Positions 30,162-53,277 of a stretch of DNA of 64,000 bases are shown piece by piece. The position numbers and the translations under genes were made by a program. The stretch's first letter is position 1. Each line of letters starts with the position of its first letter. The stretch lies in assembly GCA_046758505.1 (NCBI GenBank), contig JBHIAH010000003.1, forward strand, positions 28,178 to 92,177, written 5' to 3'. Below the pieces are notes generated by a model. That model was not told the DNA's origin and searched no databases. It saw nothing but the letters and a program-made list of their open reading frames with translations. Source of the DNA: Candidatus Methylomirabilales bacterium (GTDB lineage Bacteria; Methylomirabilota; Methylomirabilia; Methylomirabilales; CSP1-5).

Positions 30162-30566
30162 TCATCTGCCGGAGCGCCTTCGACCTAGGAAAATTCCCAG
30201 GAACAACCCGATGATCAAGGCCCCGGCCCATTTCCTCTCGTCCCCAATCGCTACGAACCGGGTGCCTTCCGACGTCACCTCCACGACCCCGACGGGGCTG
30301 GCGGTCAACCCTGCCCCTCCGCCCTCCTCAGCCCCCTCGTTCTGTGCCTTGCTTTCACCCTTCTTCTTTTTGTTTCTGGAACACCCACAGAAGCCATACG
30401 CCACGCGAGCCACAGGAACAATGGTCTTGCCCTCAGCCACCATGGGTTCTCCATACACGGTCTTGACATTGGCACTCTTCTGCAAACGCTCCCCGAGGGA
30501 CTGGAAAAACTGTTGGATGCTCACGACATCGCTCCTCATGACAGAAGGTTTTGCCAGCACGCTCAT
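30162..30566 (-). CDS. GerW/YtfJ-family protein
   Basis: 134 aa. The pattern VYGEPMVAEGKTIVPVARVAYGF, then a Gly/Lys-rich linker, then PVGVVEVTSEGTRF is typical of the sporulation-protein YtfJ/GerW family. A C-terminal TM helix follows. Confidence 0.6.
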   Translation of the reverse strand: MSVLAKPSVMRSDVVSIQQFFQSLGERLQKSANVKTVYGEPMVAEGKTIVPVARVAYGFCGCSRNKKKKGESKAQNEGAEEGGGAGLTASPVGVVEVTSEGTRFVAIGDERKWAGALIIGLFLGIFLGRRRSGR

Positions 30567-30769
30567 GGCTCCTCATTGCAGAACCCCTGATCGGGCGGGC
30601 GTCCGTTTCTCAGGGGATTCTTCGGGAGATTTTCCGCCGCTCCCGAAAGCCATGCCCGTCCTCCCCCCTCGCGATCCTCAACCCGCCTTTCCCCGGTGTC
30701 TCCGTGGGGCGGCCATTATACACCAAGACCCCGCTATTCTTCTCAGGTCCCCCACGGCGCCCACTGTCG

Positions 30770-46601: not shown

Positions 46602-48305
46602 CTACAACGGCCCGGAGCCCGTGACGAAGGCATCGTCATCCAGCCAGTCGGCCAGCGCGGAGGCCTGCCGGCGGACAGTTTCCTCGTACTCGTCATCCGT
46701 GGGAAAAAGGTCCGGATCGAAGGGGAGGAGAGACGGGTCGAGCACGGCGTAGGCGGGAAGGCGATTCGCATCGGCGAGGATCTGCTCGACGCACTCGAGG
46801 CGCCGCCGGATCTCTCCGGACACCCAGCTATGGTCGCTTGTGAGGTTTTCTGCTGCGATAGGCGGCGGTACAGAGAACGCGTCGGGGGGCAGCTCCAGCC
46901 GCATTCCTGTCTTCTCTTCGAAGTCGCGGCAGAACTCGGCCGCCACCGAGCGGCGGGCGCGGCTGAGCTCCTGTGCAGCGAGCATCGCGTGCTGCCTTCG
47001 TCCCTCCAAATTCTCGGGACTATCCATCAGCCGGCTCGCCTCGACTGCCACCGCCGCCTGCGATCGCAGCTCGTCGCCGGCTTCGCCGAGCGATGGCGAG
47101 GTTTTCAGCGACGCGGTGGGAAAGCGGGGGAGCAGACGGAAGCTCTCGCGGGCGATGAGGGCGCCCGCCGCGTCGAGGCCACGTTGGAGCCGTTTGCCGA
47201 GGGCGTCGCGTCGCTTGAAGCCTTCGATCGACAAAGCCTGCGCCGAAGCCAGATCGTCAGGCGAGCCCCAGGAGACGATCGAGAGCAGTGCCGCGACGCT
47301 GAAGAAGGAGCAACCGAGGTCGATGCGGTCCGGGAAGAGCGCTGATTCGCTCACTCCTGTGGCGGCCTCGAGCTGCTCGCCGGCCTGGGAGGGCAACGTC
47401 AGCTCCTCGGCGACTGGAAGTTGACTCATGTCGCTGAAACAAAGCTCCTCAAGCGGGGTCGGTATGGCCGCGCGGGCGGCGCCCGGGAGCCATTCGGGAG
47501 CGAAGGGGTTGCCATCGAAGTAGATCGGGCACGCTAGCGCCCCACGCTGCGCGTGCGGGCGCCGAACGGTCTGGTCCATCGAGGTCAGGTCGATAATACG
47601 GAGTCCTGGCGTCCGGCTCAGGGGAGCGTCTCGCTTGGCCTCTTCGATGCCTTTCTTAAACGCGTCCCGCAGGTCCCCGGCTAGCATCGCATCGACCCAC
47701 GCGTCGGCGGGGTCGGGCCGCCCGGGGTCGTCGATCTCAAGCAGCAACTCCGTTCGGCGTCGTGCCGGCCAGCGGAAAACTCGACCGGGCTCGCCTGAAG
47801 GACGGAAGGATCCGTCGACCCGCTCGTGAGTGGCGAAGAAGGCCGCTACGACGGCGTCGAAGCAGACATCGACATAGAGGGTGGGCAGCCCATAGTGCTG
47901 CGCGAGAGCGGCGGTCGCCTCGGCTTGAGTCGGCGCGAAGTGGAAAGGACCGGCGGCACCACCGATAGTGGCCGATGGGGAGGGGGCGAGGGGCTGTGGC
48001 AGGACGGGCATCTCGCTCCCGAAAAGCTGCGTTGCCGTGAAGCGACTGGTTCGCTCCATGAGGAGGCGGACGAGACTTGTGTCGAGGGAGTGAAGCCGGT
48101 TTCCGAAGAACTTCCGGTGCGTTGGCCGCAGGTAGCCAGGGAGCACGGTAGGGAACTTCGCCGCCTGGCCCCGGTAGATCCAGGCGTCGCATGGGCAGGG
48201 CTCGTCGGCCCAGGCCAGGAGCTCCTCCAACCATCCCGGGCGCTTCGTCGCGCCGCCTGCCGCATCGTCGTCAGCTCGGCGCAGGCTGCATCGGTTCATC
48301 GTCAT
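46602..48305 (-). CDS. FRG-domain protein with ~300-aa uncharacterised C-terminal region (island cargo gene 1)
   Basis: FRG-domain signatures are present: WIYRGQ...VLPGYLR, ALAQHYGLPTLYVDVCFD..VVAAFFAT and RRPHAQRGAL. The start is set at ATG 48305 (MTMNRCS...); the ORF-track start at 48410 and the ATG at 48299 are alternatives. Confidence 0.7.
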   Translation of the reverse strand: MTMNRCSLRRADDDAAGGATKRPGWLEELLAWADEPCPCDAWIYRGQAAKFPTVLPGYLRPTHRKFFGNRLHSLDTSLVRLLMERTSRFTATQLFGSEMPVLPQPLAPSPSATIGGAAGPFHFAPTQAEATAALAQHYGLPTLYVDVCFDAVVAAFFATHERVDGSFRPSGEPGRVFRWPARRRTELLLEIDDPGRPDPADAWVDAMLAGDLRDAFKKGIEEAKRDAPLSRTPGLRIIDLTSMDQTVRRPHAQRGALACPIYFDGNPFAPEWLPGAARAAIPTPLEELCFSDMSQLPVAEELTLPSQAGEQLEAATGVSESALFPDRIDLGCSFFSVAALLSIVSWGSPDDLASAQALSIEGFKRRDALGKRLQRGLDAAGALIARESFRLLPRFPTASLKTSPSLGEAGDELRSQAAVAVEASRLMDSPENLEGRRQHAMLAAQELSRARRSVAAEFCRDFEEKTGMRLELPPDAFSVPPPIAAENLTSDHSWVSGEIRRRLECVEQILADANRLPAYAVLDPSLLPFDPDLFPTDDEYEETVRRQASALADWLDDDAFVTGSGPL

Positions 48306-48366
48306 TCGCCTTGCCGAGGGAATGCGTGTGATAATGTGTGATAAGAATTCCCTTTTGCGTGAGAGC

Positions 48367-48395
48367 AATCTAACGAGACAGGTGCTTGGTGTCAA
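48367..48395 (-). promoter_or_regulatory. sigma70-like promoter candidate for the FRG-TPR operon
   Basis: The minus strand reads TTGACA (48395-48390), a 17-nt spacer, then TAGATT (48372-48367), about 60 nt upstream of the FRG start. A doubled word GTGTGATAA-T-GTGTGATAA (48327-48345) lies between the promoter and the start. Confidence 0.4.
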
Positions 48396-48636
48396 GGAAA
48401 ATGATACCAAAAGATACGGCGGTTAGGGGAAAAGTACCCCGAGACATGGAGGGTGGGTAGCAGGCGGGCGTTCGGAGGATTATAGGAGCCGTGAGTGGTT
48501 AGGAGCTGGGGTGTGTGGCACCGGACGGGCAAGTTTGACCCCCACCGGCTCATCGAGGCCTTGGAGGGCTTAGGAGTCATGAGGAGGAGTACGGCCAAGC
48601 CGGGGAAGGTAAAGCGTGGAGAAAGTAGGAAGGTTG

Positions 48637-48856
48637 CTACTGAGGACCTTGGCGAGCATGACTTTCTCTCACGGCAGGCATCTAACCGCACATGGCTGGT
48701 GACATACACTTACCCGATTCTGCCGTCCCTCGCAAGCGGAAACGGGAACCTGTGTAGAGTGCGTGTACTTAGAGGATAAAGGAGGAAAGGACTAAAGGGA
48801 GATGCCTTAAGTGATCCATTGGTTTGTGTTCGTTGGTTTGTGTCAGGCATGTATTT
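48637..48856. repeat. 220-bp perfect direct repeat, right copy (orphan comM 5' stub)
   Basis: Identical to 43987-44206. It carries an orphan ATG at 48659 whose reading frame runs into island DNA and stops after 29 codons ([29 protein letters not shown]). Confidence 0.95.
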
Positions 48857-49172
48857 TGGGTAATTTTTGCCTTGCGGCCATCGGCGTGGGGACCTGTCCA
48901 ACGCGTCGGGGTGGCCGATCCATATCCTAGAGGGTAGCCCGGGGGGCGTCAAATAGTCACTATCGCACGCTTGGCACCGAACTTGCTTTTTACCGAGCCT
49001 GTTCCCGCGGGGCCGGCGAACCAGTTGACTTTTACACGGCTCTCGGGTACCGTTTCCCCCGTTCGACAGGTCCTGAGAGGCACCGAGCACGGTGCTGTGA
49101 TCCCGGAGGTTCCATTTCCTTCTGACGACGACACCAGGCCACTCTCATTCAGGATAAAACAGGGAAGTGTCC

Positions 49173-49757
49173 ATGATTCACGTCGGGTCTCGGCTGTGCG
49201 TCGCGTCATACCGTGATCCTGTCTTATCTGCCGACGATATCCTTGTCCTGATTCGCCCCAGTACCGCGTTCGGCGATGGAAACCACGCGACCACGCAGAT
49301 GTGCCTGGAAATGCTCGAATGCGAGATAGGCGGGGGAGAACTCGTATTAGATCTCGGAACCGGATCCGGGGTGCTGGCCATCGCCGCGGCCAGGCTCGGG
49401 GCGCGGAAAGTCATCGCGGTTGATACCGCGCGGCATGCGTGCAAGGCCGCCTCCGTGAACATCCCCACAAACGATGTGGAACAAACGGTTCATGTATTGC
49501 ACGGGTCCGTAGAGGCACTACACCCCGACAAGATATTTGACGTGATCGTCACCAATCTCTACAACGCGGAGCAAGTCAGGGCGGTTTTGCCTGAAATAGC
49601 CCGGAGAGTCCGTGGGCGGGGCATGCTTATTTGTGGGGGAATCTGGATGCGTCGCGACGAAGAAATGATTCGCCTTCTCGCCGATGAACATTTCGCGGTC
49701 CGGACGCGGCGAACCATGGACGATTATGTCACGATTGCCGCGGTGAAAGAGGCCTAA
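49173..49757 (+). CDS. SAM-dependent methyltransferase, PrmA-like (short form)
   Basis: FGDGNHATTQMCLEML and VLDLGTGSGVLAIAAARLGA resemble the ribosomal protein L11 methyltransferase core, but the PrmA N-terminal domain is absent. ATG at 49173 (RBS CAGGGAAG); GTG at 49167 is an alternative. Confidence 0.65.
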   Translation: MIHVGSRLCVASYRDPVLSADDILVLIRPSTAFGDGNHATTQMCLEMLECEIGGGELVLDLGTGSGVLAIAAARLGARKVIAVDTARHACKAASVNIPTNDVEQTVHVLHGSVEALHPDKIFDVIVTNLYNAEQVRAVLPEIARRVRGRGMLICGGIWMRRDEEMIRLLADEHFAVRTRRTMDDYVTIAAVKEA

Positions 49758-49795
49758 ACGCACGATGAGTGAGAAGGACCGGGCGGACAGAGCGG

Positions 49796-50446
49796 TTATC
49801 TGATCGACACGATGTAGTTGAGTTGGGCCGAGTCGACGTCGACGAGGGCTTTCAGTCGCTCGACCAAGATCGGGGTGAGCGCCTTCAGATCAATGTGCAG
49901 CAACACGCCCGCTTCCCCTGTCACCTCTCCCGTGAGGGGGAGGCCGAGGTCTCTTTCCAGCCCGCGCACCAGTCGGGCAAAGCGCACGTCGCCGGGATCC
50001 GCGCGCCCTTGCGCAGCCGCTTCGGACTCCGGGCTGCCCGGCACATACGTAATAACAAGCGGTTTCGGCAACGAGACGCCCACAGGGGCTTTGGGTCTGT
50101 CCGGGTTCACGCGGACCCTCGCCACGTTATCCCGCGTGCGGAGTCGCCTCGCGAGTCTGGCGGTCAGCTTTTCACCATCGACGGACAACAGAACCCAGTT
50201 GCCCCCCGTTACCTGCTTCGCCTTCATGGGGATACCGGTCTTCCCCGCCACCCGGGTGACCACCGGGGCCAAGGCCCCGAGATCCGGTGGATAGACCTGG
50301 CTGGCTCGGGCGACCGCTGCACTCCCCTCCGTTCCGGGGGCAAACTTGATGAGCGCCTCTCCCGGGACAAAGCGGGGGGATGGTACCGGTGCAGCACCGA
50401 GGAGGAGGGTTGAAAGAGCGAGACCGACGATTGCAGACACAATCAC
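49796..50446 (-). CDS. secreted protein bracketed by subtilase-propeptide-like motifs
   Basis: 216 aa with a hydrophobic N-terminus. It opens with FVPGEALIKFAPG and ends with VDVDSAQLNYIVSIR. These mirror the propeptide of the divergent subtilase (FVPGEVIVKMKPT ... PDVAYAQANYILHIA). Confidence 0.5.
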   Translation of the reverse strand: MIVSAIVGLALSTLLLGAAPVPSPRFVPGEALIKFAPGTEGSAAVARASQVYPPDLGALAPVVTRVAGKTGIPMKAKQVTGGNWVLLSVDGEKLTARLARRLRTRDNVARVRVNPDRPKAPVGVSLPKPLVITYVPGSPESEAAAQGRADPGDVRFARLVRGLERDLGLPLTGEVTGEAGVLLHIDLKALTPILVERLKALVDVDSAQLNYIVSIR

Positions 50447-50518
50447 ATCCTCATGGGTTGCGGGATCTGCACGTTCCCTGGATACCTAACAGTATACGAA
50501 GACTGGGGGGAGGAAACA

Positions 50519-52318
50519 ATGAAGACCTCTGCACTCGTAGTTCTGGGGGCCTTTGGAAGCCTGGTGCTCGGCCAGCTGCCTGTACAGGCACAGCCGCGCA
50601 CGCCCGAAGAGGTCCAACGGCTGTTCGAGTTCACGCGCCCCGCCGAGGCGCAGTTCGTTCCCGGGGAAGTGATCGTGAAGATGAAGCCGACCCGGCGCCT
50701 CAAGAGAAGCGAGGTTTCGCAATTAAAGCTCCAGGCGGTCAGGACGACGTCCGGCGGCGAGATGATCTATCGCATTCCGCCGTCGATCACCAGAACGCTC
50801 TCACCAACCGAGGCGCGCGATCGGACGTTGGCCGTCATCCGTTCGCTCAGCGCGCGACCCGACGTCGCATACGCACAGGCGAACTACATCCTCCACATTG
50901 CCGACAGAACTCCGAACGATCCCCGCTTCCCCGAGCAGTGGCACTACTTCAACAATGGGACCGGTCCCGGGGCGTCCCCGGGAGGGATCAGCCTGCCGAG
51001 GGCCTGGGACACAAGCATCGGAAGCAGTAGCGTCGTCGTCGCAGTCATCGACACCGGCATTCTGCCAAACCACCAGGATATCGCCGGCTCGCCGAACCCG
51101 ATCGCCGGCTTCGACATGATTAGCGATGCGACCATCGCAAACGATGGAAACGGTCGCGACACCGATCCCACGGACCCCGGCGACGCCGTCGCCGCCAACG
51201 AGTGCTTTCCGGGGAGCCCCGCCCTCCCGGATAGCTGGCACGGCACCCATGTGGCCGGGACCGTCGGCGTCGGCAGGACCAACAACGGCGTCGGGGTCGC
51301 CGGCATCAACTGGAACGTGAGGGTCCAGCCGGTGCGCGTGCTGGGCAAGTGCGGGGGGACCATCGCGGACATCAACGACGGCATCCGCTGGGCTGCGGGC
51401 CTCCCCGTGCCCGGCGTGCCGACCAACACGACCCCGGCCCGGGTGATCAACATGAGTCTCGGAGGGACGGGGGCCTGCTCGTTGTCCCCCTCCACACAGG
51501 CGGCGATCAATGACGCGGTGGGGTCGGGGACCGCGGTGGTCGTGGCCGCGGGGAACGAGGCCTCGGACGCGTCAGGTTTTCTCCCCGCAAGCTGCAATAA
51601 CGTGATCACCGTGGCGGCAAGCGACTACCGCGGCCACCTGGTGACCCGCTACTCGAACTTTGGATCCACCGTCGAGATCATGGCGCCCGGCGGTGACGTC
51701 CAGCGAGACGACAATGGGGACGGCAATCCCGACGGGGTCCTCAGCATGGTCCAGGGCGGCTTCGCGTATTACAACGGCACGTCGATGGCGACCCCACACG
51801 TGGCGGGTGTGGCCGCCCTCTGGCTCGCCCAGGACCCCGGGCTGACGCCGGCACAGCTCCTCGCCGCGCTCCAGGGCAACGCGCTGCCCAGGACGGCGAG
51901 CCAATGCCCCCAGCCCTGTGGCGCGGGCCTGCTGAGCGCGCTGCGAGGCCAGTTGCTGGTGAGCCTGGTACTCGATCCCGATAAGACCCTCGATCAGGGC
52001 GAAACGACCACCGCCCGAGCCACGGTTACCATGGCCGGGGCCCCGCAGCCGGGCAAAACGGTGATGTTCAGCACAGCAGACCCCAGCGTTGCCTCCGTCT
52101 CGCCGGCATCCGCCGTGACCGACCCGACCGGTCAGACCCAGGCCACCGTGCGGGGCGAATCAAATGGGGAGACAACGGTGACCGCCGTGGTCAATGGTGC
52201 CAGCGCGTCGACCCCCGTGAAGGTCCCCGACGTGTCTGTGATCGGGGTCATCATCCTCGCACTCGGCGTGGGACTCGCTGCGCTTTTGCGAAAGCGACGC
52301 GCGTCCGCACGACGATAA
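50519..52318 (+). CDS. subtilisin-family (S8) serine protease with Ig-like domain and exosortase-type C-terminal sorting signal
   Basis: The start is set at MKTSALVVLGAFG (RBS GGGGGGAGGAAAC). The catalytic triad contexts are VAVIDTGI, HGTHVAGTVG and GTSMATPHVAG. A Big-like domain precedes the tail VPDVSVIGVIILALGVGLAALLRKRRASARR (motif, TM helix, basic cluster). Confidence 0.85.
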   Translation: MKTSALVVLGAFGSLVLGQLPVQAQPRTPEEVQRLFEFTRPAEAQFVPGEVIVKMKPTRRLKRSEVSQLKLQAVRTTSGGEMIYRIPPSITRTLSPTEARDRTLAVIRSLSARPDVAYAQANYILHIADRTPNDPRFPEQWHYFNNGTGPGASPGGISLPRAWDTSIGSSSVVVAVIDTGILPNHQDIAGSPNPIAGFDMISDATIANDGNGRDTDPTDPGDAVAANECFPGSPALPDSWHGTHVAGTVGVGRTNNGVGVAGINWNVRVQPVRVLGKCGGTIADINDGIRWAAGLPVPGVPTNTTPARVINMSLGGTGACSLSPSTQAAINDAVGSGTAVVVAAGNEASDASGFLPASCNNVITVAASDYRGHLVTRYSNFGSTVEIMAPGGDVQRDDNGDGNPDGVLSMVQGGFAYYNGTSMATPHVAGVAALWLAQDPGLTPAQLLAALQGNALPRTASQCPQPCGAGLLSALRGQLLVSLVLDPDKTLDQGETTTARATVTMAGAPQPGKTVMFSTADPSVASVSPASAVTDPTGQTQATVRGESNGETTVTAVVNGASASTPVKVPDVSVIGVIILALGVGLAALLRKRRASARR

Positions 52319-52333
52319 TTCCCGGAGGCTTCA

Positions 52334-52945
52334 ATGTCCGTGGGTCGACAACTGAATCTTCGCTTCGCGGCGGTGATGGTCGGATTCGTGGGCGTCGTGC
52401 TGCTCACCTACCGCGAGGACATCCTCGGGCCGATCCTTGCGCCCCTAACAACGTGGACGGCGCAGGCCACGCTCGTGTTGCTTCACTGGGCAGGCATGGA
52501 GGCCGCCCGGGCGGGGACGCTCATCGCCCATCCGGACGGCTTCGTCTACGAGATTTACTACCGCTGCACGGGGTTCCTCCCGGTGGCGTTTCTGACCACG
52601 TCGATCCTGGCTTACCCTGGGCCGTTACGACGCAAGTTCGTCGGGCTTGCCGTGGGAGTGCCACTCCTGATCGCGCTCAATCTGGCCCGGCTGGTCCACC
52701 TGTTTTACATTGGCGTGCATCACCGGGCCGCATTCGATCAGGCGCACGCCATCGTGTGGGAAGGGATCCTCATCCTCACGATCATCGGGCTCTGGCTGGG
52801 ATGGATCCGATGGTCCGACGCCCGGGCTACGCGTAGCAGGAGGCCTAATCACTGGGGCGAGCGTCGACCCCAGCGGCCGCTGGGGGGAGCGGACCCCACT
52901 CCTTCTCATGGTTCAGAGAGGAGGTCCGCTCTGCTCACCCGATAA
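52334..52945 (+). CDS. small exosortase/archaeosortase-family transpeptidase
   Basis: 203-aa polytopic protein with candidate catalytic Cys (YYRCTGFLP), Arg (ALNLARLVH) and His (FDQAHAIVWEG) in the order expected for the exosortase family. It starts 16 nt after the protease stop. RBS CCGGAGG. Confidence 0.6.
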   Translation: MSVGRQLNLRFAAVMVGFVGVVLLTYREDILGPILAPLTTWTAQATLVLLHWAGMEAARAGTLIAHPDGFVYEIYYRCTGFLPVAFLTTSILAYPGPLRRKFVGLAVGVPLLIALNLARLVHLFYIGVHHRAAFDQAHAIVWEGILILTIIGLWLGWIRWSDARATRSRRPNHWGERRPQRPLGGADPTPSHGSERRSALLTR

Positions 52946-53022
52946 GACAGACGCTTCACAAAGACAAGGGCCACCTGGATGGTGACCCTTTTCGTCGGGG
53001 AGAAAACAAACCGCAGTCGGAG

Positions 53023-53277
53023 TTACTTTTTGGCCCGAGCACGACGGCGTCGGGCACTTGTTTTTCGGCGGGGCTGGCGCGTGCCCGTGGCACGTCGGGC
53101 CCGACGGCGCCGACGCCTTGCCGGGGCTGCAGCCTTTGCCGGAACCACTGTATAGCCGATTTTGCGCAGCGCCTTGTTGAGGGTACTGACAAGCCTCTTC
53201 TCGACCCGCTCCACTCTCTTTCGCTCGCCAAGAACGACCCCAACACTCTTGACTAGATTCTCAAGTCTTTTTGCCAC
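53023..53277 (-). CDS. small basic protein with Arg-rich tail (hypothetical)
   Basis: 84 aa: a helical N-terminal half followed by the tail PARRRRRRARRATGTRQPRRKTSARRRRARAKK. No competing ORF; function unknown. Confidence 0.4.
   Translation of the reverse strand: MAKRLENLVKSVGVVLGERKRVERVEKRLVSTLNKALRKIGYTVVPAKAAAPARRRRRRARRATGTRQPRRKTSARRRRARAKK

Follow-up and report, generated by a model that had tools for sequence, protein, structure and literature searches.

A putative self-contained module of an S8 subtilase, an XrtH-type exosortase and a prodomain-like partner protein in a Methylomirabilales genome

Exosortases are widespread, yet to our knowledge their cleavage site in bacteria and the acceptor are not known. 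Most exosortase systems have dozens of substrates and are located in polysaccharide loci. The classical IPTL-CTERM tail is known chiefly from Proteobacteria, where a genome has several targets, and its enzyme, XrtH, is named in JGI product names for the IPTLxxWG signal. Here we describe a three-gene locus in a stretch of 64,000 nucleotides (nt) from a Candidatus Methylomirabilales bacterium (contig JBHIAH010000003.1; the whole stretch is called the window, and plain coordinates refer to it). The locus encodes an S8 subtilase with a C-terminal sorting tail, a small XrtH-type exosortase (the sortase) and a divergently transcribed protein (the partner). We suggest, with a probability of about 0.6, that the locus is a self-contained unit for producing, restraining and sorting a single envelope protease by means of a dedicated sortase and a trans-acting prodomain mimic.

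Stand-alone subtilase inhibitors of the I9 type are represented by yeast PBI2, Pleurotus POIA1 and plant SPI-1, with the C-terminus thought to be placed in the substrate-binding cleft. A bacterial stand-alone inhibitor of the prodomain type was not found in the literature searched. The partner described here resembles these inhibitors as a free-standing homologue of a subtilase prodomain but differs from them in being bacterial, tandem and of the PF22148 rather than the PF05922 type, in its predicted export or tethering, and in being genetically locked to one protease and one sortase. In Vibrio cholerae the secreted serine protease VesB carries a tripartite GlyGly-CTERM that is cleaved by rhombosortase, and VesB is then held at the surface (PMC6219818). 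The present cargo is likewise a serine protease with a C-terminal tripartite signal; rhombosortase, in contrast, is a rhomboid serine protease that serves many substrates, is not adjacent to them and has no prodomain-mimic partner.

All three genes of the locus were detected as open reading frames (ORFs) at the positions claimed in the initial annotation, and every motif quoted there was located in the translated products. The sortase gene does lie just 3' of the protease gene, with a gap of 15 nt rather than 16 nt. The divergent ORF is also present, but its NCBI start lies two codons later, at the GTG at 50440, which has the better spacing from GAGGA. The genes are as follows.

50519-52318, plus strand: S8 subtilase pre-pro-enzyme, 599 amino acids (aa); Pfam Peptidase_S8 (PF00082), 4.8e-51, 174 bits.
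52334-52945, plus strand: XrtH-type exosortase, 203 aa, polytopic, beginning after the protease stop and the 15-nt gap.
49796-50446, minus strand: partner, 216 aa (214 aa in the NCBI version from GTG 50440, "hypothetical protein ACE5IQ_01680").

The pairing of sortase and cargo was analyzed across loci. Sortase homologues were taken from metagenome contigs and, at 28 loci, from species genomes of GTDB; 34 loci were left after deduplication, 33 of them with upstream sequence. In all 33 evaluable loci the sortase gene is either fused to a tail-bearing gene or directly preceded by one in the same orientation. Proteases account for 32 of the 33 cargos: an S8 subtilase (24 loci), a thermolysin-like M4 protease (7 loci in Gemmatimonadales, L030, L032, L033 and L036-L039, with tails reading GVPDLS... 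or PLPSDLS...) or an M6 protease (1 locus, L003/L019, from a delta-proteobacterial metagenome-assembled genome, MAG). At the remaining locus, in an Acidobacteriota MAG (L028:4913-5344), the gene before the sortase encodes an Ig domain and the tail (VPDGSVF...) without a catalytic domain, and the partner gene abuts it; a deletion, or else a fault in the assembly, may account for this Ig-only cargo. Members of the sortase clade occur in MAGs of Methylomirabilota, Nitrospirota, Gemmatimonadota, Thermodesulfobacteriota and Acidobacteriota. Many uncultured bacteria from soils and sediments carry the three genes together, and the neighbouring flank genes vary from locus to locus. The NC10 bacterium CSP1-5 has two complete partner-protease-sortase modules (L012 and L013) about 70 kb apart on contig LDXR01000006.1; the duplication thus concerns entire modules and not cargo genes alone.

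Consecutive enzyme and target genes are the signature of dedicated sorting systems, for instance JDVT-CTERM and its adjacent intramembrane protease, in which the enzyme and the single target are consecutive across many genomes (10.1101/2023.06.07.544157). The present loci share this arrangement in 33/33 cases and differ from the JDVT-CTERM type in that the enzyme is an exosortase-family cysteine enzyme, the cargo is mostly a protease (32/33), a third conserved partner is present and enzyme and substrate are fused in some genomes. The comparative evidence, namely the adjacency at every evaluable locus, the two modules on one NC10 contig and three fusions, thus favours the private sortase that had been proposed from the window alone.

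The fusions are the strongest form of the consecutive-gene link. In-frame protease-sortase fusions were detected in two Nitrospirota MAGs and in one independent metagenome contig (L021:1054-3264, L022:4255-6567 and L071:1-2067, the last on the minus strand). The S8 domain is followed by a poly-Pro linker, by ...TDLAGF-helix-GRRR and then directly by the first sortase helix; the linker stands in place of the Ig domain, the motif is degenerate (LTRTDLAGF) and the partner gene is still found upstream in divergent orientation. The arrangement is topologically consistent: the tail helix would terminate on the cytoplasmic side, and the unfused sortase is expected to have its N-terminus (MSVGRQLNLRF) there too. 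Assembly errors were considered as a source of the fusions and rejected, since the same in-frame junction occurs in three assemblies that differ at other residues. An XrtH recognition segment inside a protein is also the feature of the midcut-by-XrtH model (NF033207). The present tails, however, score far under its cut-off (up to 22 versus 45 bits), several of them weakly matching the recognition segment, and the part downstream of the segment in the present fusions is the sortase itself.

The assignment of the 203-aa protein to the exosortases, made initially from residue order and context, is borne out by family profile searches. TIGR04177 (XrtH) was the sole subfamily model passed (91.2 bits, cut-off 86), with XrtX (65 versus 170) and ArtB (60 versus 150) as runners-up; the exosortase/archaeosortase signature TIGR04178 (50 bits versus 23) and Pfam Exosortase_EpsH (PF09721, 33.4 bits versus 25.7) were matched as well, and NCBI names the identical 203-aa protein "exosortase H". 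At least three strong hydrophobic segments and two weaker candidates were read by eye. The residues of the proposed catalytic triad of the family, Cys/Arg/His (Haft 2023 preprint, 10.1101/2023.06.07.544157), are encoded at the following positions and are invariant across an alignment of 29 sequences, so that the Cys is kept throughout the clade sampled.

52565-52567, plus strand: codon of Cys78 (in YRCTG, residues 76-80), predicted catalytic nucleophile.
52688-52690, plus strand: codon of Arg119 (in NLARL, residues 116-120), invariant.
52745-52747, plus strand: codon of His138 (in QAHAI, residues 136-140), invariant.

XrtH is the best match for all 29 clade members (29/29), with a best E of 4e-31, which places the clade at the edge of XrtH and not in its core. 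The likeness to the XrtH/IPTL-CTERM system (TIGR04177/TIGR04174) includes the small size of the exosortase (about 160-200 aa), the Cys/Arg/His residues and the best subfamily model, together with the same tripartite layout and motif register of the signal. The differences are the VPDLSxIG motif, a score barely over the cut-off, the passing of the IPTL-CTERM model by 1 of 11 tails, and the strict pairing of the present clade with one adjacent gene. Three additions to the module as initially described are thus the XrtH type of the sortase, the VPD motif as an IPTLxxWG variant and, as set out below, the tandem repeat in the third protein.

The tail claimed for the protease was located at residues 569-594 (VPDVSVIG...RKRR) and has the tripartite layout of the PEP-CTERM class, a short motif abutting a hydrophobic helix, with basic residues clustered at the very C-terminus.

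52223-52315, plus strand: C-terminal sorting signal, residues 569-599, with VPDVSVIG, hydrophobic helix 572-590 and RKRR 591-594; the protein ends at 599.

The motif across 28 loci reads x-V(28)-P(28)-D(26)-L(23)-S(24)-[LVF]-I(16)-G(21), with the number of loci in brackets, and is followed by the helix and an Arg/Lys cluster. VPDLSxIG stands in the same register as IPTLxxWG, [IV]-P-[TD]-L-x-x-[WI]-G, and judged from this alignment of motifs the tail represents a variant XrtH signal. A distant module (L075) has the tail VPTLVDWA...RKRRR, bridging VPDLSxIG and the canonical IPTLxxWG. The IPTL_CTERM model gave results from no match up to 21.5 bits on ten further tails, one of which passes (1/11 overall), and no dedicated model for the VPDLSxIG variant was found in NCBIfam release 20. 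One tripartite tail of the VPD type was detected in the 64-kb window. In about 40 related loci the tail is borne solely by the gene beside the sortase, with no second tail in about 0.5 Mb of flanks. Besides the protease, a single ORF of the window has a hydrophobic helix and RRR at its end (30162-30572, minus strand, ...WAGALIIGLFLGIFLGRRRSGR); it has no VPD- or IPTL-type motif, and its tail is probably a simple C-terminal membrane anchor.

The protease matches the NCBI protein MFQ5846365.1 exactly ("S8 family serine peptidase", from a Candidatus Methylomirabilales MAG). GGAGG lies 5-6 nt ahead of its ATG at 50519; an upstream ATG at 50453 was considered as the start and rejected, since the Shine-Dalgarno sequence and the NCBI start fit 50519 and the resulting 621-aa form is absent from the collection. 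The parts of the protein are listed here.

50519-50590, plus strand: predicted Sec signal peptide, residues 1-24, ending ...VQA, with hydrophobic segment 4-22; cleavage site predicted from sequence.
50591-50905, plus strand: prodomain, residues ~25-129, from FVPGEVIVKM to NYILHIA, its end set by TPNDP at 131-135.
51026-51928, plus strand: S8 catalytic domain, residues 170-470 (Pfam).
51977-52222, plus strand: Ig-like Big_1/Big_2 domain, residues 487-568 (Pfam), a portable cassette together with the tail.

Asp178, His241 and Ser422 sit in canonical S8 motifs, so the enzyme looks active. Pfam Fervidolysin_NPro-like matches residues 38-122 (30.5 bits versus a cut-off of 21). TPNDP, which we take to be the motif where thermitase-like mature subtilases begin, is read three residues past NYILHIA. 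The Big_1-plus-tail region is common to the window S8 protease, an M6 protease and a distant S8 protease, the latter two beside related sortases; a search with this cassette for a listing of cargo types returned just 10 contig-end fragments.

The partner belongs to an unannotated family of 351 clusters at 50% identity (profile search among 1.84 billion representatives, E<=1e-3), and nearly all of the best 150 of these 351 clusters are 180-240 aa long. The AlphaFold2 model of the partner, made with a 28-sequence alignment, has a predicted local distance difference test score (pLDDT) of 87.5 and a predicted template modelling score (pTM) of 0.79, and shows a hydrophobic helix at the N-terminus and, in succession, two beta-alpha-alpha-beta-beta-alpha-beta units.

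50108-50374, minus strand: partner domain 1, residues 25-113, starting FVPGEALIKF (FVPGE at residues 26-30).
49811-50059, minus strand: partner domain 2, residues 130-212, topology as in domain 1.
49799-49819, minus strand: C-terminal heptapeptide NYIVSIR-COOH, residues 210-216, aligning with the protease prodomain end NYILHIA.

It had been proposed that the first and last motifs of the partner copy the boundaries of the protease propeptide. The motifs are present, but the likeness is not confined to the boundaries: a whole prodomain-like domain is duplicated in tandem. Direct comparison of partner and protease by BLASTP aligned 13 residues only (E=0.015), too weak a result, so that profile methods were needed. 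The two partner domains match each other by hhalign with 97.8% probability (E 1.3e-12, 84 columns); domain 1 matches the protease prodomain alignment with 96.3% (E 1.5e-9, 59 columns) and domain 2 matches the prodomain with 97.1% (E 7e-11) over the last helix and strand. The partner family hidden Markov model (HMM) matches over 20 neighbouring proteases in their prodomain region (E 1e-5 to 7e-9), and PF22148, the fervidolysin N-terminal prodomain of Pfam, is matched by 24 of 28 family members (best 1.4e-8). The relationship of partner and prodomain is thus supported by profile comparisons, and on this sequence evidence the partner is a tandem duplication of a fervidolysin-type prodomain. Foldseek against the PDB returned generic alpha/beta sandwiches and two weak prodomain matches, the partner profile gave only non-significant matches to PDB sequences, and domain 2 modelled alone lost its last strand (pLDDT 76).

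The C-terminus of the partner was compared with the protease at 20 loci, which are phylogenetically related and not independent observations, and its end lies 0-2 residues from the expected prodomain cleavage point. The last residues of the partner follow the cognate prodomain, for example NYIETIR with NYIERTF and NYILRIQ with NYILRIV.

With the partner as the starting point, 39 loci were recovered: 37 came from metagenomes, and two, on contigs with distant members (L040 and L041), from the search among representatives. The partner gene was found beside an S8 protease or a sortase in 32 of the 33 evaluable loci. At 29 of these loci the S8 gene is divergent from and adjacent to the partner gene, with the sortase beyond wherever the contig continues, and at three loci with more distant members (L041, L065 and L075) protease, sortase and partner follow each other in that order on one strand. 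The remaining loci were too short to judge, except L040, a contig of only 1 kb on which a distant partner member (L040:1-279) is preceded, with stop and start overlapping, by a C-terminal domain like GspG, the type II secretion pseudopilin; this domain itself ends in a hydrophobic helix and Arg. A stand-alone prodomain paralogue was sought beside the M4 and M6 modules, and none was found there. The partner is missing from all M4 and M6 modules and from some S8 modules; it is therefore an accessory of the present S8 prodomain type, which the sortase does not need.

We suggest the following order of events. The S8 pre-pro-protease would be exported by Sec, and its C-terminal helix would tether it to the cytoplasmic membrane with RKRR on the cytoplasmic side. 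The adjacent exosortase (Cys78, Arg119, His138) would then recognize VPD(L/V)SxIG at the membrane surface, remove the helix and, by analogy with archaeosortase A (ArtA) and rhombosortase, replace it by a membrane or surface anchor. The partner, exported or membrane-tethered, would present its free C-terminus NYIVSIR as a mimic of the cleaved prodomain end and fill the active-site cleft as a product-like inhibitor, thereby acting as a periplasmic safety catch until the protease is sorted. Such a dedicated safety catch, coupling protease activation to exosortase processing, with the one-enzyme/one-cargo pairs as a first simple model of exosortase chemistry, is a tentative proposal that we put forward with clearly limited confidence.

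Several observations weigh against a self-contained one-cargo module with a prodomain mimic. The XrtH cut-off is passed only marginally by the 203-aa protein, and the window tail scores 14.3 bits versus the curated IPTL_CTERM (TIGR04174) cut-off of 20.5. Four S8-sortase modules (L005, L027, L029 and L035) are without a partner gene, so sorting does not depend on it. Since the protease already has a prodomain, it is not obvious why a second inhibitor would be needed. A Pro right after the N-terminal hydrophobic stretch of the partner makes cleavage and anchoring both possible. The window's own partner copy has no Pfam match (PF22148 none at E<=1), and neither the full partner model nor domain 2 alone had a Foldseek match in the PDB with E below 0.001. 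The tail scans covered the 64-kb window and the locus flanks (about 0.5 Mb) rather than whole genomes, and an S-layer protein with an IPTL-CTERM tail, not detected in the mature protein, was reported in Methylomirabilis (M. lanthanidiphila, PMC8671808), suggesting that further sortase substrates are possible in the phylum. This S-layer protein prompts the alternative that the sortase is a general XrtH serving several IPTL-type substrates, with the adjacency due to shared cluster ancestry. Such a general enzyme would agree with the relation of the tail motif to IPTLxxWG and with the reach of the tail scans, but we regard it as improbable in view of the adjacency in 33/33 loci across at least six named lineages and three protease classes, the duplication of entire modules in one genome, the substrate-enzyme fusion in three assemblies and the sampled flanks without a second tail.

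The role of the partner can also be explained differently while the sorting proceeds as proposed above. Subtilase prodomains act both as foldases and as inhibitors, and the partner could be an intermolecular folding chaperone or maturation factor, required for folding or activating the protease, maybe once the protease has shed its own prodomain, and not for inhibiting it; the prodomain homology applies equally to this role, and the tight linkage and divergent co-transcription fit either. We consider a foldase unlikely, because the protease retains an intact prodomain, because modules without the partner (L027, L029 and L035) point to folding independent of it, and because a free C-terminus at the exact prodomain cleavage register is a hallmark of product-like inhibition. 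It is very improbable that the partner is no protease ligand at all but an envelope component of like alpha/beta-sandwich fold, for instance an adaptor, a docking protein or the sortase acceptor. Fold searches giving only generic beta-alpha-beta-beta-alpha-beta folds (e.g., ACT and KH tandems), the distant member adjoining the GspG-like gene (L040) and the fact that the exosortase acceptor is not known are compatible with such a component; the sequence likeness, however, is specific to the prodomain of the adjacent protease and not to a generic fold, and the partner was never found with M4 or M6 modules of the same sortase clade.

The exosortase family, tripartite signals, dedicated systems and prodomain-like inhibitors were already known, and the sortase is annotated automatically. 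New are the VPDLSxIG variant, which the current signal model does not capture, the finding that the sortase clade is strictly paired with proteases from three catalytic classes, the natural fusions of cargo and sortase, and the unannotated family of tandem-prodomain partners. With one cargo whose enzyme activity can be assayed, a two-gene pair or even one fused gene lends itself to exosortase reconstitution, and if the safety catch and the strict pairs are confirmed, these loci would be the first simple model for where exosortases cut and what they attach. The partner family would be a bacterial, tandem, stand-alone class of prodomain-type subtilase inhibitors tied genetically to the target. 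Two annotation gaps are evident, as the IPTL-CTERM model misses VPDLSxIG and the partner is labelled "hypothetical protein".

The remaining features of the locus lie between and beyond the three genes.

50447-50518, no strand: divergent intergenic region of 72 nt (78 nt with the partner start at 50440), between the partner gene and the protease-sortase operon.
52966-52990, minus strand: GC-rich, terminator-like hairpin, between the sortase gene and a convergent small gene.

A promoter scan of the divergent intergenic region gave no match to the sigma-70 consensus, so that the suggested co-regulation of the partner gene and the protease-sortase operon is drawn from the gene layout. The hairpin may mark the end of the module, a weak indication given that terminator-like sites in the window are no commoner than in shuffled sequence. 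The convergent small ORF (53023-53277, minus strand) encodes 84 aa with an extremely Arg/Lys-rich C-terminal half and has no Pfam match. The module is flanked by unrelated housekeeping and transport genes, encoding a PrmA-like methyltransferase, an FRG-domain protein, a TPR protein and an RND pump with its membrane-fusion protein. Rfam families and tRNAs were not found in the 64-kb window, including 48411-49166, a stretch of about 750 nt without a convincing ORF between the FRG-domain gene and the PrmA-like gene. This ORF-poor stretch is contained in a region of lower G+C (0.588 for 48001-50000).

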